DNA of 64,000 bases from Nitrospirota bacterium (GTDB lineage Bacteria; Nitrospirota; Thermodesulfovibrionia; Thermodesulfovibrionales; SM23-35). The position numbers and the translations under genes were made by a program. The notes beneath the pieces were generated by a model. The model was not told where the DNA came from. It was given only the letters and a program-made list of their open reading frames with translations, and ran no database searches. Numbering within the stretch: the first letter of the stretch is position 1; each line of letters opens with the position of its first letter. Shown here in pieces: positions 22,971-40,015 of this stretch. Location: contig JBMOLW010000041.1 of the NCBI GenBank assembly GCA_049323875.1, forward strand, positions 74,476-138,475. Reading direction: 5' to 3'.

Positions 22971-23510
22971 ATGAACAGGAAAACCCTATCCGGCTATTGC
23001 ATCGTTCTCGCACTCTCGTCTCTTCTCCACGCGCTGAGCCCTGCAAAAACATCTATACACCTGATACTCCCCCTTTTTCTGCTCTTCTATCCGACCGTCA
23101 CAGGCTACAGGGTAAAGATCAGTCTTTCCCCGAAGGATATCATGTTCGGGCTTGCGGTATCAGTATTGATCCTTGCACCTTACGGGATTGCGTTCAGGGC
23201 AGAACCGGGCGACCTAACCCCTTATCTCATAGTTTTCCAGTTCCTCGGCGTTGCATTCCCTGAAGAATTTTTCTTCAGGGGATTCCTCCAGGATTCTCTG
23301 GGGAGGAACTACAAAGCAGTCGTGTTCGCAAGCCTCCTTTTTGCGCTCGCCCATCTCCCGCAGGCAATATTCAGCGGCGGATGGATCGCACTCCTCAGCT
23401 TCTTCCCTTCACTGATTATGGGATGGCTTTTCCTGAAAACAAAGAATATACTGCCCGGCGCCATATTTCACTGGGTTGCGAACCTGATACAGCAGTCGAT
23501 ACCCGGCTGA
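22971..23510 (+). CDS. CPBP family (CAAX/Abi) intramembrane glutamic endopeptidase
   Basis: 179 aa, polytopic, with motifs EEFFFRGF (EExxxR), FALAHL (FxxxH) and HWVANL (HxxxN). Its stop lies 2 bp from the convergent S8 protease stop. Confidence 0.85.
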   Translation: MNRKTLSGYCIVLALSSLLHALSPAKTSIHLILPLFLLFYPTVTGYRVKISLSPKDIMFGLAVSVLILAPYGIAFRAEPGDLTPYLIVFQFLGVAFPEEFFFRGFLQDSLGRNYKAVVFASLLFALAHLPQAIFSGGWIALLSFFPSLIMGWLFLKTKNILPGAIFHWVANLIQQSIPG

Positions 23511-23512
23511 TT

Positions 23513-25816
23513 TCACCCTTTCCTTCTCAGGATAAATACGATCACAAGGGGAAGCAGGAGCATAAGGGTATCTGCAACTGCTGTCTGGGGCGAAGCAGTC
23601 CTCCCGATGGCACACCCGCCGCCACCGCCTCCGTCTCCGTTATCAGAGGAAGATTTTTCCGTGGTCGCCTGGGTTTCATTCGAATACGCCGAATAGCCGA
23701 ATGTATTTACTGCACGCACCCGATAGAAATATGTTGTGGCCGGATTTAACCCCGAATCATTGTAGCTCGTGGTATTCGATCCGGTCCCTGCTATTTCAGC
23801 ATACATCCCGGCCTCTCCGGTCTTTCTCTCGATCCTGAAACCGGTTTCATTCGATGAAGTATCTGTCCAGGAAAGATCTATCTGGCTTTTTGAAACCGCC
23901 GTTGCCATGAGGTTCGATGGGGCAGAGGGAATCATAGCGTTCAAGGCTTCAAAGGCATTTACCCTTCCCCCGGTCGCCGTAAACCCGGTGAGGGAACCCT
24001 TCTGATCCACACTGTTCAGGATAATATTCCTCACCTCAGCATAGGACAGGGCAGGATTGGCCGAAAAGACCAGCCCGGCAACACCGCTTACATACGGGGC
24101 AGCAAGCGATGTTCCGCTCCACGGCAGTTCTCCGCGATACATTTCATATGAATAACCCCCTACGCTCAGCGGCTGCCTCTGTACAAGAACATCATCAATG
24201 GATACCCCCTCCTGCTGGAAAAACCCGTCTGATTCGAGGCCAAACCCGATATGGAACCGGTCATAGAGATCGGCTGCTTCCGTAATCAGGTCAGTAAAGA
24301 CCGGGACAAAAGCACCTCCGGTATTCCCGTCCGTCCATGCAACGTTCTGCCATGTATTGCCGTCCGGAGAAGAGTTGAACCAGAAATAATCAAATGAGAG
24401 TTGATCGATATGTCCCTTCCAGACACAGGACAGGATATAGAGGTTGTTCTTGACCGATACCAGCGGGGTCAGATATCCTGCCCAGGAATTGGTATTGGGC
24501 AGATAGGTCGCTCCGGGGCTCTCTTCAAGGCTGTTCGTTCCGTTCACCCCGGTTCCCGGGGTTATCTCCCATGATGCGTTTATTCCACCCTGTGACCATC
24601 CGATCAGGGAAAGCGGGCCCGTTGCACTGTCAAAGTTCTCACTATATACCGTAACCGGTGCGCCCGCTGAAATTACCGGGACAGTGCTGTAGATCTCCAC
24701 TCCCGGAGCAGCAAGATCAACAGATGCTGCTCCATAATTCGAGAAATTCGCAAGGGTATCGCTGCTGTCAGAAGCCGCGACTGACAGGATATTATCCAGG
24801 CTGAAGCCGGCAGGGTAGAAGGGAGCCAAATCAGTGTTCAAACTCTCATTGCCCGCAGCAGCAACAAACAGCACCCCTTTCGACCGGGCATAGTTTATGG
24901 CACTATAGAGAGTATTTGAGTAATCATATCCTCCCCAGCTCGCATTGATAACCCGGGCTCCGTTGTCTGCAGCATAGATGATTGCACCGGCTGCATTCGC
25001 TACATCGCCCGACCCGGTCACTCCCAGAAAACGGATCGCCATGATATTTGACGACCACATGACTCCTGACCCGCCCATACTATTGTTTCCGTCTGATGCG
25101 ATAATCCCTGCGACATGGGTCCCATGGGAGTCCAAATCCTCGGGATAGCCGTCATTATCCACAAAATCCCAGCCATACATATCATCGATATATCCATTGC
25201 CGTCGTCGTCTATGCCATTCGCCGAGATCTCTCTTGTATTCCTCCAGATATTGTCCGCAAGGTCCGGGTGGTTGTATGCGACTCCTGTATCAATTACAGC
25301 GATGATACTGTCCTTCGACCCTGTCGTAAAATCCCATGCTTCCGGAGCATCGATATCCGCATCAGGACTCCCGCTGGTCTGTCCGGTATTTGCAAGCCCC
25401 CACTGATAGATAAAGCCCGGGTCATTCGGGATGACCGCCTTCCTCACAAGATAATTCGGCTCTGCATATTCAACATCAGGATTCGATCGATAGGCGTCGA
25501 GTGTTTTCTGAAGGTCCACGGAACCAGGCAACAGGACCCGTTGTACTCCGATATGCTTCAGCTCGCGGACTTTTCCTGCCCCCATAGCCGCATTGAGCGA
25601 AACTCTTCTCAAGTCCGGGGTACCGGGTTTGAATTTGACGAGAACTTCTCCGGGGAGGTTCCGGGACATCGGCACCTTTAAGCCCTCCGAGCCCTTTCCC
25701 TGAGTCTGCAGGGAAACAGGGTCAGGATTCGTTGTGTTTTGCGTGATCCGGAATTGCTCTTCAGCGCCGCACCCGGCAAAGGCCAGCACAACCATAATAC
25801 AGATGAAATATCTCAC
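23513..25816 (-). CDS. S8 (subtilisin-like) serine protease: lipobox, propeptide, FN3, Cys-containing C-terminal tag
   Basis: GTG start 5 nt after AGGAGG and 10 bp after gspN. Lipobox LAFAGC and propeptide ..VLVKFKPG..VEYAEPNY. Catalytic triad AVIDTGV, HGTHVAG, SGTSLAAP. One FN3 domain. Tail GGGGGGCAIGRTASPQTAVADTLMLLLPLVIVFILRRKG. Confidence 0.93.
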   Translation of the reverse strand: MRYFICIMVVLAFAGCGAEEQFRITQNTTNPDPVSLQTQGKGSEGLKVPMSRNLPGEVLVKFKPGTPDLRRVSLNAAMGAGKVRELKHIGVQRVLLPGSVDLQKTLDAYRSNPDVEYAEPNYLVRKAVIPNDPGFIYQWGLANTGQTSGSPDADIDAPEAWDFTTGSKDSIIAVIDTGVAYNHPDLADNIWRNTREISANGIDDDGNGYIDDMYGWDFVDNDGYPEDLDSHGTHVAGIIASDGNNSMGGSGVMWSSNIMAIRFLGVTGSGDVANAAGAIIYAADNGARVINASWGGYDYSNTLYSAINYARSKGVLFVAAAGNESLNTDLAPFYPAGFSLDNILSVAASDSSDTLANFSNYGAASVDLAAPGVEIYSTVPVISAGAPVTVYSENFDSATGPLSLIGWSQGGINASWEITPGTGVNGTNSLEESPGATYLPNTNSWAGYLTPLVSVKNNLYILSCVWKGHIDQLSFDYFWFNSSPDGNTWQNVAWTDGNTGGAFVPVFTDLITEAADLYDRFHIGFGLESDGFFQQEGVSIDDVLVQRQPLSVGGYSYEMYRGELPWSGTSLAAPYVSGVAGLVFSANPALSYAEVRNIILNSVDQKGSLTGFTATGGRVNAFEALNAMIPSAPSNLMATAVSKSQIDLSWTDTSSNETGFRIERKTGEAGMYAEIAGTGSNTTSYNDSGLNPATTYFYRVRAVNTFGYSAYSNETQATTEKSSSDNGDGGGGGGCAIGRTASPQTAVADTLMLLLPLVIVFILRRKG

Positions 25817-25826: not shown

Positions 25827-26606
25827 TCACCGGTAAAGGGTTCCCTTCACCGGTATCACAAAATAACCGGGAGAGACTTTATAGTGCTCAAGCTGCGCGA
25901 GCAGAAACGGGTTTTCGAGAAATGACCTGCCCGGCATGATTTCCATGGCAAGGTCCATCACCGTATTCCGGACTACCCCTTTGAGTCTCGCAAAGACATC
26001 TTCTCCCTCGAGTGAAAGGGATACGATCCGTATCGTGTCACCCTGAATTTCCAGTGCCCCGGTAAGGGTATGGAACAGGTTCAAGGGCACCCGTCTGCCC
26101 GCATAGGTAGCAGGTTCTAAGCGGGCATCCCCTGAAGCGAACTCGGCATGACCGGTTGAATCATTAATCCTCAAGGTGCCGGACAGTCTGCCCCTGCCTG
26201 CGAGACCCATCCTTTTCAGGAATACGATCTCGCTGATGCTGACATCGTTGAGAGAACACGTTATCTGCTGGGTGTCCCTGGTAAATTCCATTCTGCCCGA
26301 AACAGCCCCGCCATATACTTCACCATCGAGCACCCCGCGCAGACTGAAGAAGAAGAGACTGAACGGGTAGACGCGGAGCGAGAGATTGCGGAACGTGACC
26401 AGTTCATGGCTGTCGCGCCTCAGGACTGCTGTGTCAATATCTATAGTATACAACAACCCTTTCTTCAGTCCATGCAGTTCAGCATTGATCCCGTGGGCTG
26501 CGAGGGAATCCTCTATAATGGCCTGGAGTGTGTCCGGGGAGAAAACAACCCATGGACCGCAGAGGATCAGGATCAGGGCGCATGCGAGGATAAGGAAAAG
26601 CTTCAC
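25827..26606 (-). CDS. gspN: Type II secretion system protein N (putative)
   Basis: 259 aa with an N-terminal TM. Positioned after gspM, with a GTGA overlap with it. Confidence 0.6.
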   Translation of the reverse strand: MKLFLILACALILILCGPWVVFSPDTLQAIIEDSLAAHGINAELHGLKKGLLYTIDIDTAVLRRDSHELVTFRNLSLRVYPFSLFFFSLRGVLDGEVYGGAVSGRMEFTRDTQQITCSLNDVSISEIVFLKRMGLAGRGRLSGTLRINDSTGHAEFASGDARLEPATYAGRRVPLNLFHTLTGALEIQGDTIRIVSLSLEGEDVFARLKGVVRNTVMDLAMEIMPGRSFLENPFLLAQLEHYKVSPGYFVIPVKGTLYR

Positions 26607-27106
26607 TTTGTCATCAGGAACGAAAGGGCAAGGGAAATATTCAAGAGCTCAGGATTCTCAAAAGACTTCTTGATAGTCACCTTTTTCATGACAAGCGGCA
26701 TGGGTGCGTTCTCGATCCTGTAAAGGATATTCACCATCTCATTCATGGTAACTTTCTCGAGAGAGAGATCGGCACCCTCTTCAAAACCGCCCCTGATCTC
26801 CTTCTTTCCTGTGGACTTCAGAGTTTTTACTGTATCTTTCAGTCCCATTGAACTGAAGGCTTCATCGACAGCCTGAACAATGCCCTGAGGAGCTGAAAGG
26901 CCCTTCCTGCTTTCTCCTGAATCTATCCTCTGTTTCAAAGAGAGGTATTCCTCCTTCAGCTGAAGCATCTCGTTCTGTTGTTCTTTGAGCATGGCCAGCT
27001 CTGTTCTGGCCGATGAGATCAGGTGCATTCCATAGAAGAGGAGGAGAAGAGCAACGAACAGGCCGCCAAGAAAAATCATCATTGTTTTGTCCTTGAAAAA
27101 TGCCAT
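26603..27106 (-). CDS. gspM: Type II secretion system protein M (putative)
   Basis: 167 aa, bitopic (TM IFLGGLFVALLLLFYGM) followed by a coiled coil. Positioned after gspL. Confidence 0.6.
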   Translation of the reverse strand: MAFFKDKTMMIFLGGLFVALLLLFYGMHLISSARTELAMLKEQQNEMLQLKEEYLSLKQRIDSGESRKGLSAPQGIVQAVDEAFSSMGLKDTVKTLKSTGKKEIRGGFEEGADLSLEKVTMNEMVNILYRIENAPMPLVMKKVTIKKSFENPELLNISLALSFLMTK

Positions 27107-28170
27107 CAGGATTTCCTCTCCCTCGCTGTTATGGTGAACAGCATCCCACTCGCCGCAGACGACTTGGAATCTGACAGGGCAACCCCGTCAAAAACCGGCT
27201 CCAGTCTGTCCTTCATCTTCTGTACCTCGCCCAGGGTCGGGGCTTCTCCTTTCAGAATCAGATTCTCCCTGTCCATGGTCATCTCATGAAAGACCACGTC
27301 TTGCCTGTCGATTTCCGAAATTGCAAGGATTGCGGCCAGAGGACTGATACCGAGAAATATCTCCTCGTCGGTTTTCAGTTCTTTCATATGGGATTTCATC
27401 TGATGGAGTTCATTCACGATATTCTTTTCTCCGGGGAAGACTTCCTGATACTCTTTTCGTATAGCATTTTTTACCGCTGCGATTTCCGAGCGGACAGAGA
27501 AAATATTCAGCAGGATGTCAGCAGCAAAAAACATCACGACAACCATGGCAAGGAGCGCAGTCAATCTCAGCGATCTCCGGGTCTTTTCGGTCTCCCGGGT
27601 GTATGCAAATTCATCCCTGCGGAGGTTGAGGACCGGAGACTTCATCTCTTCAAGAGCAACAGATATCCTTTCCTCTCCGTCCAACTCGCCCGGCCCGAGA
27701 AGTTTTTCCGGTGAAAAATCCCTGATAACTTTCCTGAGATCAAGAGACGTTATGCAGACCGGGTCGGCATTGTATGTCTTCAGTTTTTCCAGAAGGCCTC
27801 TGATAATTTTTTTACTCACATACACTGCGAGCACCTGGCTTGTGTTGCCGGAATCAGTGAGCGGGATGCAATCAAACACCACATTTTCAGATCCTTCGAG
27901 TATGATGTTGTCAAGTTCAAAGGGGAGCACGTCCCTCACCTTTTCCCGTTCTCCAAATGGCAGGTCCATGACCCGGAAATCGAGATTGCTCAGGGGAAGG
28001 CTTACATAGGTATTCTCAACAGCACCCGGAACAGGATCGATCGGAAAATCGTGGCTGCCTGAGCGGGGATAGACCTTGCTCTCCTTAAGAGTATAACCGC
28101 CCCTTCCTGAATCGAAGAGATAGGTTTCGATTTCAGAGTCTCTGATATCAAGAAAGAGCGCCGTTGCCAC
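27106..28170 (-). CDS. gspL: Type II secretion system protein L (putative)
   Basis: 354 aa with a cytoplasmic PilM/actin-like N-domain, one TM (LTALLAMVVVMFFAADILL) and a periplasmic C-domain. GTG start. Confidence 0.65.
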   Translation of the reverse strand: MATALFLDIRDSEIETYLFDSGRGGYTLKESKVYPRSGSHDFPIDPVPGAVENTYVSLPLSNLDFRVMDLPFGEREKVRDVLPFELDNIILEGSENVVFDCIPLTDSGNTSQVLAVYVSKKIIRGLLEKLKTYNADPVCITSLDLRKVIRDFSPEKLLGPGELDGEERISVALEEMKSPVLNLRRDEFAYTRETEKTRRSLRLTALLAMVVVMFFAADILLNIFSVRSEIAAVKNAIRKEYQEVFPGEKNIVNELHQMKSHMKELKTDEEIFLGISPLAAILAISEIDRQDVVFHEMTMDRENLILKGEAPTLGEVQKMKDRLEPVFDGVALSDSKSSAASGMLFTITARERKS

Positions 28171-29057
28171 TAATATTCCTTCCAGTATTCAATGAGATTG
28201 CCGTTGTGATCCCATACCGCTTCAATGATCCGTTTCACTCCTCCTGATGACGCTACCGACTTCACAGAAAATTGGCTGCTTTTCTCCATCAGGGCTATCG
28301 AGGTATCAGGCAATGAACCCGTGAATCTCTGAAAGTCCTCTCCCTTCAGGGGAACCACTTCCCTGTTGCGGACTATCTGCTCCGCTTCCTCTTCCGTAAC
28401 ATCCTCCGCAAGGCATCTCAGCACAGGGGTGCCGGCAGTGTTAATATTTATTTCAAGGTTCAATGCGCTCTTTCCAAAGACAGTAACATATGGCAATAAT
28501 GTATCATACTCTTCTTCCCCGATTCCATGCACCAGGAGAAGTTCGTCGATACTGACGAAATATGCGTTTTCTGCCCCGGTCTCCGAACCCGGCACTCTTG
28601 CCTCGCTGTCCCCGTCTATCCAGTCCGCAATTCTCCCGGCAATACGCTCATCAAGGTTTAAGATGGCCAGCAACCTCACAAATGCATCATAGGTATTCTT
28701 TTGGCCGTTGGGATAGACAAGGGTGTTGATGTTGAATTTGGCGTTTTCGTCCTCGATCCTGACCGTGACCGTCCCCTGGAAATCCTCGAAAGGATTTTCC
28801 ACAGGCATCTCCATAAAATTCTGTGTCGGTATCGCAGTTCCGGAACTCAGCACATTGGCAAGAAACGGCACTGATACGTTGATCCCTGATCTTGCCATGA
28901 GGGAGAGCCGCTGCGCATCCCGCCAGTTATAGAGATTATTCGTTCCCGTATAGACACCATAAGAGAATTCCACGACCATCGCAGTCAGGAGAACAAGGAC
29001 AAGAAGCGTGATAACCAGTGCCATGCCGTGCTGGTTGAAGCACACATTGTGTTTCAT
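28170..29057 (-). CDS. gspK: Type II secretion minor pseudopilin K
   Basis: Prepilin-like MKHNVCFNQHG|MALVITLLVLVLLTAMVVEF with a large GspK-size body. The track ORF extends to 29228, but that extension is a translation of REP copy b. Confidence 0.7.
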   Translation of the reverse strand: MKHNVCFNQHGMALVITLLVLVLLTAMVVEFSYGVYTGTNNLYNWRDAQRLSLMARSGINVSVPFLANVLSSGTAIPTQNFMEMPVENPFEDFQGTVTVRIEDENAKFNINTLVYPNGQKNTYDAFVRLLAILNLDERIAGRIADWIDGDSEARVPGSETGAENAYFVSIDELLLVHGIGEEEYDTLLPYVTVFGKSALNLEININTAGTPVLRCLAEDVTEEEAEQIVRNREVVPLKGEDFQRFTGSLPDTSIALMEKSSQFSVKSVASSGGVKRIIEAVWDHNGNLIEYWKEY

Positions 29058-29107
29058 CGTTTTCCTGGAAATCTCCCTTTCACACTGCATTACTTCTGAA
29101 TAACTGT

Positions 29108-29173
29108 CATTGTCCGGCTTGACCGGACAATCCAGTTTTTTTCTCTGGATTCCCCGATCAAGTCGGGGAATGA
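29108..29173. repeat. Bipartite double-hairpin REP-like element, copy b
   Basis: CATTGTCCGG-CTTGA-CCGGACAATCC, a 17-nt spacer, then GATTCCCCGA-TCAAG-TCGGGGAATGA. Lies between gspJ and gspK. Confidence 0.85.
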
Positions 29174-29224
29174 CTTTATGGACATTTATGCCCAAGTGAA
29201 GAGAGAACAAAGGAATCTTCTCCA

Positions 29225-29875
29225 TCATACCTGATTTCCTATCCTGGGTTTTGCGATATCATTGAGTGTAACCGTATGCCCCTTGATTCTCATGGTCAGG
29301 CCTATCCGTAATTCCCCGGGTTTCGTTTTGTTCACTGCCGCATCCCAGGTCCCCACCCAGGCATCCTGATATTTCGCCTCGATGCTGAACCCTTCAAGAT
29401 CTTCTATGATCTCAACTCCCTCTGTTTCTGCCCTCCCGTATGGTGATTCCATTTTTTTCAGGAGGCTCAGTTTCCCCTCTTTCTCTTCGACATAATACGA
29501 AATCCTTGAAAGCCCGGGGCGCAGAGCGGAGAATGCAGTGAAATCGAGCTGTGTGGTCTGTCTGCCGTAGACATCTCTGTCCTCAATCCGGAATACAGTA
29601 TGGGTTTTCTGTTCGTTCTGATATGCGGCTTCAAGTTCGCATCTAAGGATATCGATAGCTCTCCTTGCCTCCTGAAGTCTGGTCAAAGATTCATCCATTC
29701 CTTCCATTGCCCTGTAGCTCAGGAAAAATGTACTGTAAATCGCAACGAGGATTACGGAGAGGATTGAGACTGCGACAAGCACTTCCAGCAGCGTAAAACC
29801 CATTCGCTGTGACAGGAGAACCCCGGGCCTGTCCTGTCCACCGAAATGGCATAAAGAATCCGTCTTATTGATCAT
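29225..29875 (-). CDS. gspJ: Type II secretion minor pseudopilin J
   Basis: 216 aa with prepilin motif ..QRMG|FTLLEVLVAVSILSV. ATGA overlap with gspI. Confidence 0.7.
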   Translation of the reverse strand: MINKTDSLCHFGGQDRPGVLLSQRMGFTLLEVLVAVSILSVILVAIYSTFFLSYRAMEGMDESLTRLQEARRAIDILRCELEAAYQNEQKTHTVFRIEDRDVYGRQTTQLDFTAFSALRPGLSRISYYVEEKEGKLSLLKKMESPYGRAETEGVEIIEDLEGFSIEAKYQDAWVGTWDAAVNKTKPGELRIGLTMRIKGHTVTLNDIAKPRIGNQV

Positions 29876-30216
29876 TTGACCACAAACTCATTTAACTTCA
29901 CCTCTTCGCCGCCTGCGTTCACCACAACGATAATCTCCGACACCCCGGTATACGGGGAGGCCTTTACAAAAGTCTCATAGGAGTAATGTTCATACGGGGC
30001 ATCGAACTGCGCCTTGCCGGCAACAGGATCCTGTTCGAGATCCGCCATTTTGCTCCTTGCAAGCAGGGTTGCGACCGTTATAGTCTCCTGCCTCTCAATC
30101 AGCCCCAGTTGGTAATTAACGGTATAGATGAGGGTTACAAGCAGGCTGCCGACTATTGCCAGCGCAATCAGCACCTCAAGAAGCGTGAAACCCCTTTTTC
30201 CTCCTTCCTCCTTCAT
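29872..30216 (-). CDS. gspI: Type II secretion minor pseudopilin I
   Basis: 114 aa starting MKEEGGKRG|FTLLEVLIALAIVG. The start codon and SD lie inside the heptamer array. Confidence 0.75.
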   Translation of the reverse strand: MKEEGGKRGFTLLEVLIALAIVGSLLVTLIYTVNYQLGLIERQETITVATLLARSKMADLEQDPVAGKAQFDAPYEHYSYETFVKASPYTGVSEIIVVVNAGGEEVKLNEFVVK

Positions 30217-30272
30217 CCTTCCTCCTTCATCCTTCCTCCTTCATCCTTCATCCCTCATCCTTCATCCCTCGT
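30203..30272. repeat. Heptamer tandem array (CCTTCAT/CCTTCCT)x10 at the gspH-gspI junction
   Basis: Ten contiguous 7-nt units. The coding strand reads ATGAAGG/AGGAAGG. The array contains the gspH TGA stop (30255-30257) and the gspI ATG (30214-30216). Confidence 0.92.
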
Positions 30273-30725
30273 CTCTATCTTCACCCTGCCGCTCAGGTGG
30301 TTCAGCCTGACTGTCATCTGGCTTTCCCCCCTCGTCAGGTAGATAAAGAGGTCCTCCCGGGCGCCGAGAGGCTCAAACAGAAGAGTCAGTTCACCGCTCG
30401 ATACAAGCCCCCTGGATGGTATTTCGACTCCGGTGAGGTCATGAAAAAGCCGGGATTTCTTCCCTGCAGGCTCACTCCATGCCACCAGATTCTTCGTGAG
30501 ATCAAAGGTGAGGGAGAACGTCTCTTTTCTCGACACCGCATTGTCATTTACATATCTCAGGATTGAAGCCATCTCGCGTGCTTCAGCCCTCAGCCTGCTC
30601 TCTCCGAATCCGGTGAATGCAGGTAATATCACTGCCAGGACGACGGACAGGACAAAGAGCACTATGATCAGCTCGATGAGAGAAAAACCGGGGCTATTGC
30701 ATATCCCAGTTCTGGATATCCGCAT
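30255..30725 (-). CDS. gspH: Type II secretion minor pseudopilin H
   Basis: Prepilin motif MRISRTGICNSPG|FSLIELIIVLFVL. The ATG at 30725 has a purine-rich upstream region and is preferred over the track start 30761, which has no SD. Confidence 0.7.
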   Translation of the reverse strand: MRISRTGICNSPGFSLIELIIVLFVLSVVLAVILPAFTGFGESRLRAEAREMASILRYVNDNAVSRKETFSLTFDLTKNLVAWSEPAGKKSRLFHDLTGVEIPSRGLVSSGELTLLFEPLGAREDLFIYLTRGESQMTVRLNHLSGRVKIETRDEG

Positions 30726-31400: not shown

Positions 31401-31408
31401 TCGTATGC

Positions 31409-32584: not shown

Positions 32585-34085
32585 AATCTTTCTGGGTTAC
32601 CCGCAGGACTTCTTCAAGGGTTGTAATCCCCTGTATCACCTTCTCAAGTCCGTCCTGGCGGAGCGTTTTCATACCCTGCGAAACTGCCTGGCTCTTGATC
32701 CTCTGGGAGTCCATCCGGTCGGTGATCATGGGACGTATCTCGCTGCTGATCTCGAGCAGTTCGAAAATGCCCAGCCTCCCGAGATATCCCTTTCCCTTGC
32801 AGGTATCACATCCCTGCCCCCTGAAAAGAGCCCGGGGAGGTTCCGGGAAATATGAGCGCTCACTCTCCGACGGGGCATAGGCTATCTTGCACCGGGGGCA
32901 GATCGTACGCACCAGCCTCTGCGCAAGCACAAGGGCAAGTGACGAAGCAACGAGGAAGGGCTCGATACCCATGTCTATGAGCCTCACCAGTGCGCTCGGT
33001 GCATCGTTTGTATGAAGGGTGCTGAGAACAAGATGACCGGTAAGCGATGCCTGCATGGCTATTTCAGCCGTTTCGAGGTCTCTTATCTCTCCGACCATGA
33101 TCACGTCAGGGTCCTGCCTCAGAATAGACCTCAGCCCCGAGGCAAAGGTAAGTCTTATTTTAGGGTTCACCTGAACCTGTCCGATGCCTTTCAGCTGATA
33201 TTCGATCGGGTCCTCAACCGTGATAATATTTTTTTCTTCCGTATGAATCCTGTTGAGCGCAGCGTAGAGGGTCGTCGTCTTCCCGCTCCCGGTGGGACCC
33301 GTAACCAGGATGATACCATCCGGCCTTTTCAGATGCTCCTCCATCTTTTTTTCGTCATCCCTGCTGAACCCGACCTCCCAGAGCCCCAGCAGACCCTGTT
33401 TCCTGTCAAGGAGCCTCAGCACTGCCCTCTCGCCATGAGATGCAGGGATGACCGATACCCTGATATCGATATCCCTTCCACCGAGAAGAAGGCGTATCCT
33501 CCCGTCCTGCGGAAGCCTCTTTTCAGCAATGTCGAGGTTCGCCATGATCTTGATCCTGCTGATTAATGCATCCTGGATAATTTTCGGCGGGGTCAGCACC
33601 CTGTGGAGCACCCCGTCTATTCTCAGTCTCACATCGAGCTCTTTCTCATACGGCTCGATGTGGATATCACTTGCACGCTCTTTTACCGCCTGGAGCAGAA
33701 GTGCGTTGAGGAGCCGGATTATGGGGGCCTCTTCGGTCAGTTCGAGCAGGTCTTTCGGTGCTTCGAATTCAGTCGCAACAGAAGAGAGGTCTTCTCCGGC
33801 AATGGTATCCATAACCTCCTCTGCCGAACCCATCTGCCCGTAGAACCTGTTGATCGCATCGAGGATGACCCCTGCACTTGCCCTGACGGGTTTGGGCTTC
33901 AATCCCAGCGTCTTCGCGACTTCAGAAAGCGCAAGCACTCCCCTGTCGTCGGCAACGGCACAGAGGAGATCCGCGTTATCCTGCCTGATAGGGAAGATCT
34001 GGTTGTTCTTTACAAAGGCGAGGGGGATATTCCTGAGAAGAACGGCTTCAACATCCTCATCTCTTATGGCATCAATTTTTTCCAT
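32565..34085 (-). CDS. gspE: Type II secretion system ATPase E
   Basis: 506 aa with Walker A GPTGSGKTT, Asp/His boxes, and the zinc motif CPRC..CDTC. Confidence 0.95.
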   Translation of the reverse strand: MEKIDAIRDEDVEAVLLRNIPLAFVKNNQIFPIRQDNADLLCAVADDRGVLALSEVAKTLGLKPKPVRASAGVILDAINRFYGQMGSAEEVMDTIAGEDLSSVATEFEAPKDLLELTEEAPIIRLLNALLLQAVKERASDIHIEPYEKELDVRLRIDGVLHRVLTPPKIIQDALISRIKIMANLDIAEKRLPQDGRIRLLLGGRDIDIRVSVIPASHGERAVLRLLDRKQGLLGLWEVGFSRDDEKKMEEHLKRPDGIILVTGPTGSGKTTTLYAALNRIHTEEKNIITVEDPIEYQLKGIGQVQVNPKIRLTFASGLRSILRQDPDVIMVGEIRDLETAEIAMQASLTGHLVLSTLHTNDAPSALVRLIDMGIEPFLVASSLALVLAQRLVRTICPRCKIAYAPSESERSYFPEPPRALFRGQGCDTCKGKGYLGRLGIFELLEISSEIRPMITDRMDSQRIKSQAVSQGMKTLRQDGLEKVIQGITTLEEVLRVTQKDYADISL

Positions 34086-34092
34086 CCGATAG

Positions 34093-36369
34093 TCATTGTA
34101 TCTTCATGATATAGTTGGGCTCTGCATATTCCACCTCTTTATAGCTCATAAAAATCCTGACCGCGTCCTTCACATCCCGGCCCTCCTTCACCAGTATCCG
34201 GTAGAGTCCTTTCGGCTTCAAAGGAGACTCGACAGCAGCATCCTCCCGGGAGAGTATCTCAGCGATCCTCTCCTCTGAAGTCCCCTCTCTGAATTTTACG
34301 AGCAACTCGCCCTCTTTATATCTTTCCTCCATCCTTGCAAATTGCAACTGTTTTTCACCGGTCAACTTATCGAGCTGCTCAGGTTCTCTCACAATATGGG
34401 GAGTCAGGAATATGAGCAGGTTAGTCTTCTTTTTCTCCACAGATTTGTTCTTGAACAGCCAGCCCAGCAGGGGGATATCGCCGAGGAGCGGCATCTTGTT
34501 CACAGTCTCTTCCTCCCGCTCTTCCATGAGTCCCCCGATTACCACGGTCTGGTTATCCTTGACAACAACAGAGGTTTTTGTCGAGCGTTTCGTTGTTGTA
34601 GGCCCCACAGTGAGCACCACGGTGGTTGATTCCTGCTTCAGGGCTGATATCTCTTCATAGATGTCGAGTTTCACATGGTTCCCTTCCGTAATCTGCGGGG
34701 TGATTCTCAGCGTAATCCCGACGTCTTTCCTCTCGATCGAGGTGAAGACTGATTGAGGCCGTGCAGGATCGGATTCTTTCTGTGCGATGAACGGCACATT
34801 CTCTCCCACGATGATTTCTGCTTCCTTGTTGTCAGAGGTCAGGATCTGCGGGGTGGAAAGGACGTTCACTGCGTCCTTGAACTCGTTCAGGCTGAAAAGC
34901 GCTGCAAACCCGGGCACAGTCAGAGTTGAAGTCACAGCAGTTCCGTCCGTGCCGATCGTCGTAATCGGGACATCGAGAAAATTCCCCATACCGCCGGCTG
35001 TCATTCCGGTGAGTCCGTAGAGAATTCCCTGCATGGAGGTGGCATCGATCTGACCGAAACCTCCGACCGCAACCGGCTCTCCGTCCTTTTCAGCGATGAT
35101 CCGCCACTTGGAGCCGAGTTCCTGCAACCTGTCTATCGAGGCTTCAACGATCATCGCCTCTACGTATACCTGCCTTCTCTTCCTGTCAAGCTGTTTGATG
35201 ACCTGGACAAGGTTCTGGTAATCTGAAGGAGAGGCTACAATAACAAGAGAATTGGTCGCCTTGTCCGGTGAGATAATAACCCTGCCTCCCGGCTCGAAGG
35301 GGCTCTTCTGTTGCTGGCTCTGCTGACCTGTCTGTCCTGTCCTTGCCTGTGCTGATATCCCCGTTATCATGGAATCAAGCACCTTGGAGAGTTCAGTTGC
35401 GTCCGCATATTCAAGGAAATAGACGTTGATCTTGCTTATTGCATCAGGAAGCGGGATATCGAGGAGAGAAACAATCCGCTTCATGGCCTCTTTTTCCTGC
35501 TTGTCTGCAATCATGATAACGGCATTCAGCCTCGTGTCTGCAAAAACCGTTGATTTGGATTCCTCAACAGACGCCGCCGGCACGGTTTCGCCCGGCCTCA
35601 GCGCCCTCATTGCAGCGGGTTGCCCCTTGCTGCTCAGGACCAGTGTCTCGGTCAGGATCTTCACCACATCTTCCGCATTTGCATATTTCAGGAGAACAAG
35701 CTCAGGCTCCTCTATGCCCGGCTTGTCTATGGTTTCAAGGATCTCGAGCATTCGCTGGACATTCGTTGCAGAGTCGACCACCATGAGCATATTCCCCGGG
35801 CCGAAGGATGAGATATGCCCGTCCCGCGAGACAAGGGGCTGGAGGAAATTCATCGCCTTTGCAGAAGAGATCGCGCTCAGTTGTATCAGTCTTGTGATGT
35901 ACGCATCGCTCACCGGCACACCCTCGTCCGTCTGGAGTTCGGTTCCTGTCTGCCTTGCCTGGGTGGTCGGCACGATCTTATATACTTTTCCGGACGGTAT
36001 AATGGTAAACCCCTTCAGTTCCAGTACTGAAGTGAAAAGGTGGAATGCATCATCCACCGAAAGCCTGGATGGCGCGATGATGGTTATCGTACCCTTCACT
36101 TTCTCATCGAAGACGAAGTTCTTGCCTGTTACTTCGCTGATGAACTTCACCACGACCGGGATATCCACGTCTACAAAGTTGAAGGCTACTTTCTTCTCCT
36201 TACCCTGGCTTTCTTGTTTTTCGGTCGGGGAGGTTTCTCCATACAGGGATGAAATAGGAAGGATGAAGGATGAAATGAGAAACAGGAGAAGGATGAAGGA
36301 TGAAGGATGAAGGATGAAACGTGAACTAACAGAAGAACGAAGGTTGAAGGATGAAAATTTATTCCTCAT
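34093..36369 (-). CDS. gspD: Type II secretion system secretin D with C-terminal S8-propeptide-like domain
   Basis: 758 aa with a repeat-encoded signal peptide, N0-N3 domains and a secretin core (VVIGGLMEE..PLLGDIPLLGWLF). The last 75 aa (YKEGELLVKFREG..VEYAEPNYIMKIQ) resemble the neighbouring protease propeptides. Confidence 0.93.
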   Translation of the reverse strand: MRNKFSSFNLRSSVSSRFILHPSSFILLLFLISSFILPISSLYGETSPTEKQESQGKEKKVAFNFVDVDIPVVVKFISEVTGKNFVFDEKVKGTITIIAPSRLSVDDAFHLFTSVLELKGFTIIPSGKVYKIVPTTQARQTGTELQTDEGVPVSDAYITRLIQLSAISSAKAMNFLQPLVSRDGHISSFGPGNMLMVVDSATNVQRMLEILETIDKPGIEEPELVLLKYANAEDVVKILTETLVLSSKGQPAAMRALRPGETVPAASVEESKSTVFADTRLNAVIMIADKQEKEAMKRIVSLLDIPLPDAISKINVYFLEYADATELSKVLDSMITGISAQARTGQTGQQSQQQKSPFEPGGRVIISPDKATNSLVIVASPSDYQNLVQVIKQLDRKRRQVYVEAMIVEASIDRLQELGSKWRIIAEKDGEPVAVGGFGQIDATSMQGILYGLTGMTAGGMGNFLDVPITTIGTDGTAVTSTLTVPGFAALFSLNEFKDAVNVLSTPQILTSDNKEAEIIVGENVPFIAQKESDPARPQSVFTSIERKDVGITLRITPQITEGNHVKLDIYEEISALKQESTTVVLTVGPTTTKRSTKTSVVVKDNQTVVIGGLMEEREEETVNKMPLLGDIPLLGWLFKNKSVEKKKTNLLIFLTPHIVREPEQLDKLTGEKQLQFARMEERYKEGELLVKFREGTSEERIAEILSREDAAVESPLKPKGLYRILVKEGRDVKDAVRIFMSYKEVEYAEPNYIMKIQ
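36247..36355. repeat. GGATGAA heptamer arrays within the 5' end of gspD
   Basis: GGATGAA units at 36247, 36261, 36268, 36291-36318 (4 perfect) and 36349. The coding strand reads TTCATCC, giving SRFILHPSSFILLLFLISSFILPISS. Confidence 0.9.
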
Positions 36370-36371
36370 CT

Positions 36372-36734
36372 CTATTTCCTCCTAACCTTTTTCACGATGG
36401 ATGTAAAAATTGCTATCAATTCATTGGCCTCTGAGAGTAAGGTTTTCAGTTCTGCACTGCTATTTATTTTAGCATCAAACAATAGTTCAAGCCAGTATAT
36501 CGTTTCATCCAGCTCCTGAACAACGATTCCGATTTTGGAAACAAATTCAGAATCAGAGCGGGCACGACACGCTTCGCGGTAATTCGCACGAGCCGATGTT
36601 CCGGAACGCAATACTTGTTTGCCGATTATTTGAGCTTCATGAGATTTGGAAGGAAGTAAAGAATAGAAATGGACTATCTTTATCGCGTATTTTTTTGTCC
36701 TGTCCCTCAAATTCTCTGTGATTCTATTTTCCAT
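36372..36734 (-). CDS. Four-helix-bundle protein (23S rRNA intervening-sequence protein family)
   Basis: 120 aa with family pattern ..QVLRSGTSARANYREACRARSDSEFVSKIGIVVQELDETIYWLELL. Lower GC than its neighbours. Alternative start at 36773 inside the heptamer array. The stop lies 2 nt before the gspD ATG. Confidence 0.8.
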   Translation of the reverse strand: MENRITENLRDRTKKYAIKIVHFYSLLPSKSHEAQIIGKQVLRSGTSARANYREACRARSDSEFVSKIGIVVQELDETIYWLELLFDAKINSSAELKTLLSEANELIAIFTSIVKKVRRK

Positions 36735-36761
36735 TTTCCTCCCTGTTTTTTCTGTCTTTAC

Positions 36762-36792
36762 TTCCTCCTTCATCCCTCACCATTCATCCTTA
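36762..36792. repeat. Short heptamer array (TTCCTCC/TTCATCC) between gspC and the four-helix-bundle gene
   Basis: TTCCTCC TTCATCC CTCACCA TTCATCC, in inverted orientation relative to the 36247-36355 arrays. Confidence 0.8.
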
Positions 36793-36796
36793 TCTT

Positions 36797-37672
36797 TTAT
36801 CGTATCTGATACGTCATGGTCATCCGTGCGCCTGACCGGATCATGTCAATCTGCACCCTGTCAAGACCTTTCAGCGCATTGAATGCCTGCAGCGCCCTGT
36901 CAGGATTCGAAATATCGTATTCGTTGATCCGAAGCAGCACATCACCGTCCTGGAGACCCAGACTGTGGTAGATCCCCCCGGGTTTCACTTCACTCAGGAC
37001 GAACCCCTCCTCCCTGCCGTTCACCACGTTCGGCCTGAGCCGTGCATCGGTCATCATCTGGGCCGGATTCGCAATTGCATGCTGGAGTCTGTTCTGATCA
37101 ACGACATATAACCCCCTCCCTACTCTCTGGGCAAATGCAGAAAGCTGAGGACTGCCTGCAGCGACCGGGCTGCTGATCTCTTTTATGGTAACGTCATCGA
37201 GGGGGATTTCGATCTCCCTGCCCCCCTGTATAAGCAAGACCTTTTCTTTTTCGACACGGGAGAGTTTCCCGGCTCCAAAGACTGATTCGCCGAGCTTGAA
37301 TACATCCTGCAGCCCTGTCCTGTCCCTGAATATTCCGAAGGTCATCTCCTTCGGGCCAACTACTGTGCCGACCAGTGCGATATCCGCCGGACCTGCCTGA
37401 CTTCCGGAAGAAGCGGCCAGGAGCTTCAGTTCCCCGCCAGGGAAACCGAAAGGATTGTTCGCAAGGATACGGGCATACTCTGTGAATTGGGTCTTGTGCA
37501 TTTCCGGCTGTTTACCGGCAGTCGAAAGGGATTCTGTCCTTGAGGCCTTTCCCTGTGCGAAATACAGCGTCAGGGCATCCCTGACCAGAAAAAGAGTCGC
37601 TAACACAAGGAGGATGCCGAGACAGACATTCAGAAAGAAAATAGTTCTCTTTGTCAGAAGTCCTGAGTTCAA
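36797..37672 (-). CDS. gspC: Type II secretion system protein C (PDZ domain)
   Basis: 291 aa with an N-terminal TM, an HR-like region and a C-terminal PDZ (GFVLSEVKPGGIYHSLGLQDGDVLLRIN). TTG start, and the only start available. Confidence 0.8.
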   Translation of the reverse strand: MNSGLLTKRTIFFLNVCLGILLVLATLFLVRDALTLYFAQGKASRTESLSTAGKQPEMHKTQFTEYARILANNPFGFPGGELKLLAASSGSQAGPADIALVGTVVGPKEMTFGIFRDRTGLQDVFKLGESVFGAGKLSRVEKEKVLLIQGGREIEIPLDDVTIKEISSPVAAGSPQLSAFAQRVGRGLYVVDQNRLQHAIANPAQMMTDARLRPNVVNGREEGFVLSEVKPGGIYHSLGLQDGDVLLRINEYDISNPDRALQAFNALKGLDRVQIDMIRSGARMTMTYQIR

Positions 37673-37850: not shown

Positions 37851-37886
37851 AAAAACAGACAACCCCGAACTGGTTCGGGGTTGTCT
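37851..37886 (-). terminator. Rho-independent terminator after the upstream S8 protease
   Basis: AGACAACCCCGAAC-TG-GTTCGGGGTTGTCT. The minus strand continues G-TTTTT. Lies 27 nt after the stop at 37913. Confidence 0.8.
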
Positions 37887-37912
37887 CGAAATTCTATAAA
37901 GTATTTTTACTC

Positions 37913-40015
37913 TTAACTCCTCCGCCTTCTTATGAGCGCGAGAGCTATCGCAGGCATGAGCAGCATCAGGACATCTGCACATGCAGTAGGGATATTCTGT
38001 GGTCCTCCGACAGAACATCCTCCGCTTCCACCCGACTTTCTCTGACCACCGCTCGGCGTAAGGGTAGTTGCAGAAATCTCATTCGAATATGCGGAGTATC
38101 CTGCAACCGGATTAAACGCTCTCACCCTGTACCAGTAGGTTGTAGCCGGACTGAGGCCTGAATCAGGAAAGGTAGACACGTTCTGGCCGACCTGTCCCAC
38201 CTGGATAAAATCATCGTTCACGGTACGTCTCTCGATCAGATATTCCTGCTCAGTTGACGAGTTGTCCGACCAGGCGAGCTGGATCTGGGAACTGGAGGTT
38301 GTAACCACCCTGAGATTCGTCGGCGGGTTGATTGGGGTCACCTGGGATATCTGAGTTCCCTGCTGGAGCGGGGATTCTCCGATATCATTATAGGCACTTA
38401 CCCGGTAATAATATCTCGTCCCGTCGGTCAGGCCTGCATCCGCGTAAAAATTGCCATTTACCCCTACCGTGGCTACCTGCACATAGTTGATCCCGTCTGT
38501 TCCCCGGTAAATCCTGTAGCCGGTTTCATCCGTAGCGCGGTCTGTCCATGCCAGATCAATCTGCAACGCGGAAACCGGGGTCGCACTGAGGTCATAGGTT
38601 GCCCACAGGGATTTCAGGGACCGGTCTGCGTTGATCCTTCCTCCTGTGAGAATCCAGCCGTTCAGGGTGTCGAGCACATCGACATATCTCAGCACCATAG
38701 TCTTGATCTGGCCGTGGGTAAAATGAGCATAATATGCGCTTAACAAACCTGCAAGACCGGTTACATGCGGGGCTGACATGGAAGTGCCTGAGAACATCTC
38801 CAGATGGCCGTATCCGTAATACTGGGTCCACCAGTTCGGCACGGTGCTGAAAATATAGGTTCCCGGCGCAGCCACATCAACAGATGTGGGGCCGAAATTG
38901 CTGAAAGAAACTCTCCTGTCGTCCTGGTCAGTCGCTGCGACAGAGATGATATTCGGCAGGTCGTAGCTTGCAGGATACATCGGCATGGCATCATTATTGT
39001 CCCCGACCCCGTCACTCCCGCCATTTCCGGCAGAGGCTACATAAAGGAGCCCTGCAACATTTGCCCGGTCTATAGCCTGATATTCAGCAGCGGAATAATT
39101 CCCCCCGCCGAAACTTGCGTTCATAACTCTGACGTTCACCCCGTGGTTGTTTTTCATATCGATAGCGTAATCGATGGCAGCGATTTCGTCCCCGACATCA
39201 CAGGAACCGTTCACATCACACACCTTGAGCGCCATCATGTTCGTCAGCCACATAATGCCCGCGATGCCTGCGCTGTTATTCCCTTTCGCCCCGATGACTC
39301 CTGCCACGTGCGTGCCATGTCCATAGTCGTCCATCGGGTCGCTGGTGTTGTCCACAAAATTCCAGCCCATGCAGTCGTTCAGGTATCCGTTGCCGTCATT
39401 GTCAACCGCGTCGGTACAACTTGTTTCTCCGAGGTTTCTCCATACATTCCAGACAAGGTCATTATGGCTGTAATCGATGCCCGTATCGAGCACCGCAACC
39501 GTCACGTCACCGCTTCCGATGGTCACATCCCAGCCTTCCGCCATTTTACTGTCAGCGCCTGCTGTCCCATACGCATACTGACCGGTGTTCCATAACGCCC
39601 ACTGGTTCGGGAAATACGTATCGTTCGGTATTATGATGTTCAGTTTTCTTATATAGTTCGGTTCTGCATATTCAACATCCTGGCTCGCCATATACTGCAT
39701 GACTGCGTCTTTGAGAGAAAGCCCCTGGGGCAGTTTTACCTGAGTGAGGTTCTTGATTGTGGAATAGTTCCTCACTACCGTTGCCCCGACTGCCTGATGC
39801 ACGGCAGCAGACGATGCAGCCTTGACGCCTGATCTGAATTTTACGAGCAGTTCGCCTTCCCGGTAATCCCCGTTCTCCATCTGTTCGATGACGGACTGGG
39901 CTGAGAGCTTGATGCTGCCGGAGGACCCTGATGTATCTGAAGAGATGTTGGTGGAAGACTGGCTGCCGCAGGCGGCAAGAAACATACATATCATTAAATA
40001 TAAATATTTCCTCAT
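37913..40015 (-). CDS. S8 (subtilisin-like) serine protease: lipobox, propeptide, two FN3, Cys-containing C-terminal tag
   Basis: Lipobox MFLAAC and propeptide YREGELLVKFRSG..VEYAEPNYIRK. Catalytic triad AVLDTGI, HGTHVAG, SGTSMSAPH. Two FN3 domains. Tail GGSGGCSVGGPQNIPTACADVLMLLMPAIALALIRRRRS. Confidence 0.93.
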   Translation of the reverse strand: MRKYLYLMICMFLAACGSQSSTNISSDTSGSSGSIKLSAQSVIEQMENGDYREGELLVKFRSGVKAASSAAVHQAVGATVVRNYSTIKNLTQVKLPQGLSLKDAVMQYMASQDVEYAEPNYIRKLNIIIPNDTYFPNQWALWNTGQYAYGTAGADSKMAEGWDVTIGSGDVTVAVLDTGIDYSHNDLVWNVWRNLGETSCTDAVDNDGNGYLNDCMGWNFVDNTSDPMDDYGHGTHVAGVIGAKGNNSAGIAGIMWLTNMMALKVCDVNGSCDVGDEIAAIDYAIDMKNNHGVNVRVMNASFGGGNYSAAEYQAIDRANVAGLLYVASAGNGGSDGVGDNNDAMPMYPASYDLPNIISVAATDQDDRRVSFSNFGPTSVDVAAPGTYIFSTVPNWWTQYYGYGHLEMFSGTSMSAPHVTGLAGLLSAYYAHFTHGQIKTMVLRYVDVLDTLNGWILTGGRINADRSLKSLWATYDLSATPVSALQIDLAWTDRATDETGYRIYRGTDGINYVQVATVGVNGNFYADAGLTDGTRYYYRVSAYNDIGESPLQQGTQISQVTPINPPTNLRVVTTSSSQIQLAWSDNSSTEQEYLIERRTVNDDFIQVGQVGQNVSTFPDSGLSPATTYWYRVRAFNPVAGYSAYSNEISATTLTPSGGQRKSGGSGGCSVGGPQNIPTACADVLMLLMPAIALALIRRRRS

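Follow-up and report, generated by a model that had tools for sequence, protein, structure and literature searches.

We analysed a window of 64,000 nucleotides (64 kb) from a Nitrospirota bacterium of the Thermodesulfovibrionales (assembly GCA_049323875.1, contig JBMOLW010000041.1, forward-strand positions 74,476 to 138,475), in which genes for a type II secretion system (T2SS), two S8 proteases sharing a Cys-containing C-terminal tail, and an intramembrane protease of the CPBP family lie together. All coordinates follow the numbering of this window, in which the cassette, counted from the CPBP gene to the distal protease gene S8_A, spans ∼17 kb; other loci and proteins of the comparison carry L and P numbers, respectively. 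The CPBP gene (22971..23510, + strand) encodes a CPBP/Rce1-like glutamic intramembrane protease of 179 amino acids (aa), a candidate sorting enzyme that we assign to an unnamed, Mrt-like subfamily on the basis of its match to PF02517, its best NCBIfam matches, and its fold. It converges on the gene for the subtilase S8_B (767 aa; 23513..25816, − strand), and the stop codons of the two genes are 2 nt apart. S8_B is the final gene of the gsp operon, which NCBIfam models resolve as gspC-(four-helix-bundle gene)-D-E-F-G-H-I-J-K-L-M-N (25827..37672, − strand). Its GTG start codon lies 10 nt past the stop codon of gspN and is preceded by a Shine-Dalgarno sequence (GGAGG) in tGAGGAGGttattGTG.

On the other side of the operon, the gene for a second subtilase, S8_A (700 aa; 37913..40015, − strand), lies upstream of gspC. 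The order upstream of gspC, as transcribed, is pilQ, a gene for a 212-aa lipoprotein, a gene for a Big_1/PKD lipoprotein (40126..42093, − strand; identified by domain match), and S8_A; by its position directly upstream of S8_A, the Big_1/PKD lipoprotein is a possible accessory or partner protein. The two lipoprotein genes occupy 40126-42715 (− strand). Directly 3′ of S8_A and before gspC, we found a hairpin resembling an intrinsic terminator (37857..37886, − strand), with a 13-bp stem containing 7 GC pairs and a T-rich tail. Because of this hairpin, S8_A probably closes the preceding unit of pilQ, the lipoprotein, the Big_1/PKD gene, and S8_A rather than opening the gsp operon, and the sequence thus predicts a transcription unit separate from gspC. 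A preliminary description of this DNA had presented the T2SS operon as bracketed by two proteases. Its coordinates and its layout of the T2SS, S8, and CPBP genes, including the gaps of 2 and 10 nt, all hold in a check of the open reading frames (ORFs), and an S8 gene does stand on each side of the operon, but the upstream one is likely to be transcribed on its own. An exact protein match and the nearest relatives, with 77–79% identity for CPBP and 91–92% for AspS, place the window in a metagenome-assembled genome of the Thermodesulfovibrionales.

Both proteases are subtilases of family PF00082 (184 and 181 bits) in which the DTG, HGTHVAG, and SGTS(L/M)(A/S)AP motifs are visible. They are paralogues with 43% identity, and each combines a lipoprotein signal, a fervidolysin-type prodomain, the S8 domain, and fibronectin type III (FN3) domains, one in S8_B and two in S8_A, with the C-terminal Cys tag. 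The solved structure nearest to S8_A is that of deseasin MCP-01 (E 9e-72), and the top NCBIfam match of both proteins is the mycosin of the type VII secretion system (T7SS), at 179 and 117 bits and thus below the cut-off of 279. The catalytic domain of S8_B contains an uncharacterised insert of ∼185 aa (roughly residues 381–565). Inserts in the S8 catalytic domain also occur elsewhere, with a metallo-beta-lactamase-fold domain in P0146 (L031:1949-4651) and a CHRD domain in P0124. In the tagged S8 proteases, including both of the window, a lipobox of the form L-x-[SGA]-C-G precedes the prodomain: a lipoprotein signal is present at each of the 35 different N-termini inspected in this group, 32 by an automated pattern and three by eye (VVSC, LFSC, and SLSC), and most of the tagged proteins that are not proteases have a lipobox as well. 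To judge from sequence, the precursors therefore bear two signals, one for N-terminal lipidation and one in the form of the C-terminal Cys tag. As a rule, subtilases cleave off their own prodomain.

The tag of S8_B comprises its final 41 aa (23516..23638, − strand) and consists of a Gly run, a Cys, a 13-residue spacer, an Asp, a helix with a Pro in its middle, and RRK. That of S8_A (37916..38038, − strand) belongs to a “PTA” subtype. The two tails, ...GGGGGGCAIGRTASPQTAVADTLMLLLPLVIVFILRRKG and ...SGGSGGCSVGGPQNIPTACADVLMLLMPAIALALIRRRRS, both fit the pattern GGGC[SA][IV]G-x5-[QP]TAxAD-x6-P-helix-RR. An alignment of 22 gap-free tails from related loci gave the consensus GGGGGGC[SA][IV]G-x3-[NS]-x-[QP]TA-x-AD-x2-VL-x2-PL-x-VI-x-I-[RK]R, in which the Cys, Thr (+10), Asp (+14), and Pro (+21) are invariant. 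The proteases that carry the tag are merely 37–60% identical overall, yet the spacing of these four residues is fixed, and the constraint visible in the alignment appears to exceed what a plain anchor would need. Helix-breaking residues are typical of the substrates of intramembrane proteases. With a hidden Markov model (HMM) built from the tails of relatives, S8_B (E 2e-19) and S8_A (E 2e-18) were the only matching ORFs in the window, which bears out the shared tail of Gly run, Cys, helix, and Arg cluster that the preliminary description had seen in both proteases.

Models and cut-offs for known sorting signals and for the Mrt enzymes were taken from NCBIfam release 20. The only sorting-signal model matched repeatedly was JDVT-CTERM, with eight of 19 tails and a best score of 20.9 bits, that of S8_A, against a cut-off of 27; MYXO-CTERM scored 14.9 bits on the S8_A tail (cut-off 20). 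No sorting-signal model reached its cut-off on any of the 19 tails, and models of the GlyGly-CTERM, Synerg-CTERM, and PEP-CTERM types gave no match at all. By the measure of NCBIfam the tail is thus not a described signal, as had been suspected at first reading, and the comparison left JDVT-CTERM and MYXO-CTERM as its only weak matches. These two are themselves tags processed by CPBP proteases (bioRxiv 10.1101/2023.06.07.544157). Given its architecture, its unrelated carriers, and its adjacency to CPBP (see below), the tail can be classed, from sequence, as a Cys-containing tripartite C-terminal sorting signal in the generic sense of Haft (2023). In the literature that we searched, nothing connects CPBP proteins or sorting signals to Nitrospirota or Thermodesulfovibrio.

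The catalytic motifs of the CPBP protein are located at E98-E99-x3-R103, F124-x3-H128, and H167-x3-N171, and the EExxxR, FxxxH, and HxxxN signatures (E98, E99, R103, H128, H167, and N171) are constant in 36 homologues. The protein scores 74.5 bits with PF02517 (gathering score 22.4) and hence belongs to the CPBP/Rce1-like proteins, in agreement with the intact motifs reported initially. Full-length homologues populate >200 database clusters at 51–79% identity, the listed members all being 174–187 aa long. An AlphaFold2 model computed with the homologue alignment reached a pLDDT of 93.8, and its sole meaningful fold match in the PDB (Foldseek) was the archaeal CAAX protease MmRce1 (4cad; probability 1.0, TM-score 0.66), while a sequence-only search of the PDB with the CPBP profile returned no match. 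A role as a defence-system or Abi protein was considered and dropped, as PADLOC gave no match.

The best NCBIfam matches of CPBP are all sorting enzymes: MrtS with 73.6 bits (cut-off 130), MrtP with 60.8 (250), and Mrt_core with 59.1 (100), followed by MrtC with 47 (195), MrtX with 41.8 (180), and MrtJ with 40.2 (75). All 36 family members miss the Mrt cut-offs, the best match to the generic model Mrt_core (NF040914) having an E value of 1.6e-19 (∼70 bits, an estimate), whereas the positive controls (Binatia, Myxococcales, and L081 relatives) pass Mrt_core at 105–113 bits. Since the best matches are Mrt models, all below cut-off, and the controls pass, we place the Nitrospirota CPBP family outside the named families yet nearest to them. 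In a GTDB scan with one genome per species, full-length members with >50% identity were found only in metagenome-assembled genomes (MAGs) of Thermodesulfovibrionales/Nitrospirota (L007–L030). Members with ∼40% identity occur in other Nitrospirota (L031 and L032), and remoter ones in Thermodesulfobacteriota/Dadabacteria, Binatia, and Myxococcota.

Two groups of these remoter relatives have conspicuous neighbourhoods of their own. The CPBP proteins of Thermodesulfobacteriota/Dadabacteria (L033–L064) likewise stay below the Mrt_core cut-off (66–75 bits) and are often encoded near proteins with another Cys tail, approximately (D/G)GGCA[IV][AS]-x(10-16)-NL[FL]L[IV]-helix-basic cluster, one of which is an S8 protease (examples are L044:11030-12100, L050:10539-13046, L051:1400-8404, L058, and L060). 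This looks like another unnamed pairing of a Cys tag with a CPBP enzyme. In L065, L066, L070, L077, L082, and L083, two tandem genes for GspE-like ATPases directly follow the CPBP gene; these loci belong to Binatia and, in the case of L083, to an unclassified deltaproteobacterial MAG. L066 (Binatia), the one tested, passes Mrt_core.

Genomic linkage was examined from both directions. Starting from the enzyme, we compared 23 species-representative Thermodesulfovibrionales/Nitrospirota loci with at least 3 kb of sequence downstream of CPBP. An ORF positive with the tag HMM lies within 6 kb in 19 of them, and gspN lies within 8 kb in 21. The typical order is aspS, aroC, CPBP, tagged S8, and gspN to gspD. 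Departures from it are informative: in L016, L019, and L030, CPBP abuts gspN without an S8 gene in between; in L020 the pair of CPBP and S8 is inverted in place, with CPBP after gspN on the same strand, and a second tagged S8 gene is frameshifted; in L032, where the vicinity lacks a gsp operon, CPBP and a tagged S8 gene are convergent and pilQPONM comes after the S8; and in L031 a tagged S8 with an inserted beta-lactamase-fold domain is one gene away from CPBP. The linkage outlasts rearrangement of the locus (L020 and L032; L016, L019, and L030).

Starting from the tag, a degenerate DNA pattern for C[SA][IV]G-x5-QTA-x-AD-x6-P matched 40 metagenome contigs, on which all tagged ORFs of classifiable length encode S8 proteases. 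Where at least 700 bp past the stop codon were available (31 genes), the next gene was CPBP in 27 cases, gspC in three, and neither in one. Both protease positions of the window thus recur, the site after gspN and beside CPBP being the common one. A tagged S8 upstream of gspC is also present in L095, L101, and L113, and L088 repeats the window order of pilQ, lipoprotein, Big_1/PKD, and S8_A. In other genomes, the stop-to-stop reading frames of gspN and S8_B abut or overlap.

We then asked which proteins carry the tail, using an exhaustive HMMER search of 1.84 billion representative proteins with a profile of the two window tails (E ≤1e-3). Of 35 matches, 34 are C-terminal; the repeated internal match in P0127 was taken as a false positive. 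About two-thirds are S8 proteases, and ∼11 show no similarity to S8 by BLAST, four of these being short fragments. Among the remainder are three lipoproteins with He_PIG Ig repeats (P0142, 966 aa; P0143; and P0154), a protein with six choice-of-anchor-D domains and one choice-of-anchor-U domain (P0150), two with a choice-of-anchor-U domain directly before the tail (P0144 and P0156), and one with no identified domain (P0149). The clients found in the clade of the window are S8 proteases throughout, and sister Nitrospirota clades bear the same tag on surface proteins with Ig repeats and choice-of-anchor domains. The choice-of-anchor domains of NCBIfam precede differing C-terminal sorting signals in differing lineages, so their presence in these proteins fits a sorting role for the tail.

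CPBP accompanies this other cargo as well. The gene for P0142 (L127) is located 60 nt upstream of a co-directional gene for a 179-aa CPBP protein with 43% identity to that of the window, between pilMNOPQ and aroC-aroK-aroB, and P0154 has the same upstream context as far as the end of its contig. P0156 (L133) lies on contig 98 of GCA_016215155.1, and contig 19 of the same assembly (L031) carries a tagged S8 and CPBP, so that a single genome encodes two or more clients that are unrelated to each other, one of which lies far from the enzyme gene. For P0144, no CPBP gene was found within its ∼7-kb contigs. Adjacency of tag and CPBP, or their presence in one genome, spans three types of cargo. The occurrence of the tail on unrelated proteins argues for a portable sorting domain, and the recurrence of CPBP as the neighbour of three kinds of cargo with the same tag argues against a mere anchor of a T2SS-associated protease. 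The co-occurrence of tag and CPBP across genomes that the preliminary description anticipated is therefore found at the level of loci, in both search directions and with three cargo types.

Several further features of these loci touch on the cargo. The pairing of Big_1/PKD and S8_A genes recurs in L088, L110, and L031, and genes for lipoproteins of 147–153 aa lie upstream of tagged cargo other than proteases (L127:9495-9950, L128:344-805, and L132:9506-9949). The lipoprotein or the Big_1/PKD protein may regularly act as a partner of such cargo. As a fifth component of the system, the small lipoprotein was kept as no more than a lead: it matches the N-terminus of the Big_1/PKD protein of L031 (E down to 1e-22) and not that of the window (E ≥0.29). 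The module of tagged cargo and CPBP sits between pilMNOPQ (42767-47741, − strand, in the window) and aro genes in the window, L127, L132, and L032, with aroC on the aro side and aroK-aroB in addition in L127. A neighbourhood of pilMNOPQ and aro genes is widespread and ancestral. In the clade of the window, the entire gsp operon and a second S8 gene appear to have been inserted into this slot.

In L011 (2247-5115), L090, L103, and L122, genes for a membrane GDPD protein (PF03009) and a 687-aa polytopic protein of the sulfatase family are inserted exactly between CPBP and the tagged S8, and in L018 (1568-4470) a homologous pair lies ∼5.5 kb upstream of CPBP. Judged by its layout, the sulfatase-family protein may resemble LtaS or phosphoglycerol transferases. 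The pair could serve to transfer a head group or a lipid to the tag. We did not retain it as a general component, as it is present in only two lineages among the loci compared (L011, L090, L103, and L122; L018). Farther away in the window, between aspS and the 3-methyladenine glycosylase gene, there is a 462-aa HAF-repeat/DUF3466 gene (18582-19970, − strand) with ∼44% GC compared with ∼51% around it.

The T2SS genes comprise gspC to gspN without gaps in the set. NCBIfam cut-offs (in parentheses) are passed by GspD with 548 bits (351), GspE with 701 (630), GspG with 171 (89), and GspK with 147 (130), so that secretin, ATPase, major pseudopilin, and GspK are all at equivalog scores and the locus qualifies as a T2SS. 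GspN passes a Leptospira-type model (93 bits, cut-off 50). GspF (390 bits, cut-off 424) and GspC, L, M, H, I, and J have best matches below cut-off; GspC is nearest to a “delta” type, and GspL and GspM weakly match Synergistota-type models. The gsp gene order is kept in >20 related genomes. The gene between gspC and gspD (36372..36773, − strand) encodes a 133-aa 23S rRNA-intervening-sequence/four-helix-bundle protein (TIGR02436, 84.8 bits; PF05635). It probably lies outside the sorting system, and in L095 and L123 gspC directly adjoins gspD without it. A gap of 283 nt between gspF and gspG (31126-31408, − strand) contains a 96-aa ORF without a family match and a terminator-like hairpin (31225-31247). 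Expression of gspG may be tuned by attenuation at this hairpin; alternatively, the ORF may not be a real gene.

Myxosortases are glutamic intramembrane proteases of the CPBP/Rce1 type that process Cys-containing tripartite C-terminal tags (Haft 2023; bioRxiv 10.1101/2023.06.07.544157). In Myxococcus, experiments have shown that MrtX cleaves the Cys tag and that display of MYXO-CTERM proteins depends on the T2SS (Guo, Haft and Wall; PMC11980579), so the link to myxosortases on which the preliminary description had built is correct. We propose, with a probability of roughly 0.65, that the locus is a self-contained sorting and secretion system of the myxosortase type, in which CPBP cuts the tag and the T2SS exports the protease. 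This proposal draws on what we observed directly, namely the architecture of the sequences, the family and fold of the enzyme, the operon structure, and the co-occurrence of tag and CPBP within loci, which held for either search direction and for different types of cargo. The genomic linkage makes the adjacent CPBP the most likely enzyme to cut the tag.

By comparative genomics and by analogy to MrtX and MYXO-CTERM, from which we infer cleavage, the cut site, Cys modification, T2SS dependence, and surface retention, the pathway might run as follows. Sec would export the precursor, which would stay anchored in the inner membrane by the tag helix, the Arg cluster facing the cytoplasm. A separate enzyme would modify the tag Cys, probably with a lipid. 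The 179-aa CPBP protein would recognise the tag inside the membrane by its conserved Asp/Pro helix and cut it off, the co-encoded T2SS would carry the folded protease over the outer membrane, and the modified C-terminus would tether it at the surface via a stalk of FN3 domains and Gly linker. Autocatalytic loss of the prodomain would also strip off the N-terminal lipid anchor, which may explain why the proteases need a tether at the C-terminus.

A number of points weigh against this proposal. CPBP falls below the curated cut-off of every Mrt model, even that of the generic Mrt_core (59–70 compared with 100 bits). Most of the synteny evidence stems from a single taxonomic order, in which the adjoining housekeeping genes aroC and aspS are syntenic too, so the loci are not independent observations, and the co-occurrence of tag and CPBP is evidence at the locus level rather than strict presence or absence in whole genomes. 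No candidate for a Cys-modifying enzyme is encoded in the 64-kb window. The positive-inside rule, applied to the helices of the AlphaFold2 model, would put E98/E99 (helix 4) in the middle of the membrane toward its cytoplasmic half, with the N-terminus in the cytoplasm, whereas the tag Cys is expected on the periplasmic side; the cleavage site is therefore uncertain, and the cut may fall within the helix instead of beside the Cys, a question that applies equally to the known myxosortases (PMC11980579). Within this clade, processing of the tag, modification of its Cys, and exposure at the surface would all follow by analogy, and the sole experimental precedent for tag cleavage and Cys modification is MrtX with TraA (PMC11980579).

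An alternative that we consider unlikely, but take seriously, accepts that CPBP cuts the tag and differs in the outcome, which would be release of the protease into the medium. The helix would then hold the zymogen at the inner membrane for a short time only, for presentation to the T2SS, and the Cys would be a structural or recognition residue that is not lipidated. The closest solved relative by structure match, deseasin MCP-01, is a secreted protease, and the locus encodes no lipid transferase. In addition, a fraction of the MYXO-CTERM proteins and of VesB is found extracellularly (Guo et al.; PMC11980579). Release does not, however, account well for the Gly run and invariant Cys, which are a hallmark of all four CPBP-processed tags with a proposed side-chain modification, nor for the arrangement of FN3 domains and Gly linker, which resembles a stalk; and the non-enzymatic clients with Ig repeats and choice-of-anchor domains are better explained as anchored surface proteins.

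It is distinctly unlikely that the locus is an anchor-swap cassette, a more elaborate scheme in which a lipid on the N-terminal prodomain would anchor the zymogen at first, a second anchor would arise at the tag Cys after cleavage by CPBP, a dedicated T2SS would bring the protein to the surface, and the prodomain would be shed last, along with the first anchor. In a related form of the scheme, the GDPD/LtaS-like pair would modify the Cys or the new C-terminus in pathways of the myxosortase type.

Still more doubtful is the idea that the tail stays uncleaved as a lasting transmembrane anchor and that the S8 proteases are membrane-tethered accessory parts of the T2SS, as mycosin (MycP) is of the T7SS, with CPBP having an unrelated role. 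Mycosins have a C-terminal transmembrane helix and provide the best, if sub-cut-off, NCBIfam match of both proteases; S8_B is operonic with gspN; and the conserved residues of the membrane segment could be contact sites for GspC, L, M, or F. The likeness to mycosin is, however, ordinary similarity of S8 domains. Moreover, a tail on a non-protease is found beside CPBP in L127 with no gsp operon within ∼10 kb upstream and 3.7 kb downstream, L032 retains the pair of CPBP and S8 without gsp genes, and three genomes combine T2SS and CPBP without an S8 at the end of the operon. Finally, it is highly improbable that the adjacency reflects nothing more than inherited synteny, with a CPBP protein of other function (bacteriocin/immunity-type or housekeeping) placed by chance between aroC and the gsp operon: aroC and aspS are equally conserved neighbours in these loci and CPBP proteins are highly diverse and mostly uncharacterised, but CPBP stays with tagged cargo while aroC, aspS, and gsp genes move (L020, L031, L032, and L127), the tag-first search lands beside it in 27 of 31 cases, and its nearest families are specifically sorting enzymes.

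The principle of sorting by myxosortases has been described before (Haft 2023; Guo et al. 2025), so the locus is not categorically new. What appears to be new, as tests for membership in the named systems all failed, is the layout of the tag with its spacer, Asp, and mid-helix Pro, the lineage, and the presence of enzyme, clients, and T2SS in one locus. The initial suggestion of an undescribed variant of this sorting logic is thus supported by comparative genomics. Sorting of the myxosortase type was defined between 2023 and 2025 and has one experimentally tested example, and the locus would extend its known range to Nitrospirota. Because curated models leave both tag and enzyme unnamed, labels in the style of PGAP read merely “S8 family peptidase” and “CPBP family intramembrane protease”; the seed alignments of tail and CPBP can be converted directly into new family models. 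With the enzyme, one or two clients, and the T2SS within ∼17 kb, the locus is compact enough to serve as a natural minimal cassette with which cleavage, modification, and hand-over to the T2SS could be reconstituted in a heterologous host, and the positions of spacer, Asp, and Pro are targets for mutagenesis of substrate recognition by CPBP. The pattern follows a prediction of the field, and its value lies chiefly with specialists, as a convenient target for reconstitution.

Among the known systems, pullulanase PulA resembles the window proteases as a protein with an N-terminal lipobox that is exported by a T2SS and retained at the surface (PMC11980579). It has neither a C-terminal tag nor a dedicated intramembrane protease, whereas the lipid at the N-terminus of the window proteases would be attached to a prodomain whose removal is expected. 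In the GlyGly-CTERM/rhombosortase system of Vibrio, the client VesB is likewise a serine protease that bears a Gly-rich tripartite C-terminal tag and depends on the T2SS to reach the cell surface (PMC11980579). The tag of this system lacks the Cys that is invariant here, and the enzyme is a rhomboid and not a CPBP protein; none of 19 tails matched GlyGly-CTERM, a result that concerns the tails, the rest of the genome not having been searched for a rhombosortase. The MYXO-CTERM/MrtX system has a Cys-containing tripartite tag, a CPBP protease with an MmRce1-like fold, and T2SS-dependent surface display, which is predicted here. MrtX is, in contrast, a housekeeping enzyme with dozens of dispersed clients, unlinked to cargo or T2SS, and its tag is of the GCGC type; the scores of CPBP with MrtX, MrtC, and MrtP (41.8, 47, and 60.8 bits) and of the S8_A tail with MYXO-CTERM (TIGR03901; 14.9 bits) place the window proteins outside these families.

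Two systems remain. JDVT-CTERM/MrtJ (NF033191 and NF033192) is similar in its single Cys and in the Asp and Pro conserved within the membrane-spanning part; each genome has only a few clients, and enzyme and client genes are neighbours. Its DP motif, however, follows the Cys by nine residues, compared with Asp at +14 and Pro at +21 in the Nitrospirota tail; it belongs to Pseudomonadota, with no reported linkage to a T2SS operon; and both CPBP (40.2 bits, below 75) and the tails (at most 20.9 bits, below 27) fall outside it. Synerg-CTERM/MrtS (Haft 2023; NF040589 and TIGR04564) provides the best-scoring enzyme family, with a model of 170 aa compared with 179 aa here, a Gly/Ser-rich run that ends in a single invariant Cys, and co-occurrence with a divergent T2SS cassette. 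CPBP does not qualify as MrtS, since its 73.6 bits are below 130 and the alignment is limited to the C-terminal half (residues 92–172), nor do the tails qualify as Synerg-CTERM, with no match of TIGR04564 at E ≤10. In Synerg-CTERM the Cys stands directly at the transmembrane helix, whereas a conserved spacer of 13 residues separates the two here, and the system belongs to Synergistota, whereas in the Nitrospirota locus the enzyme, its cargo, and the T2SS are physically contiguous.

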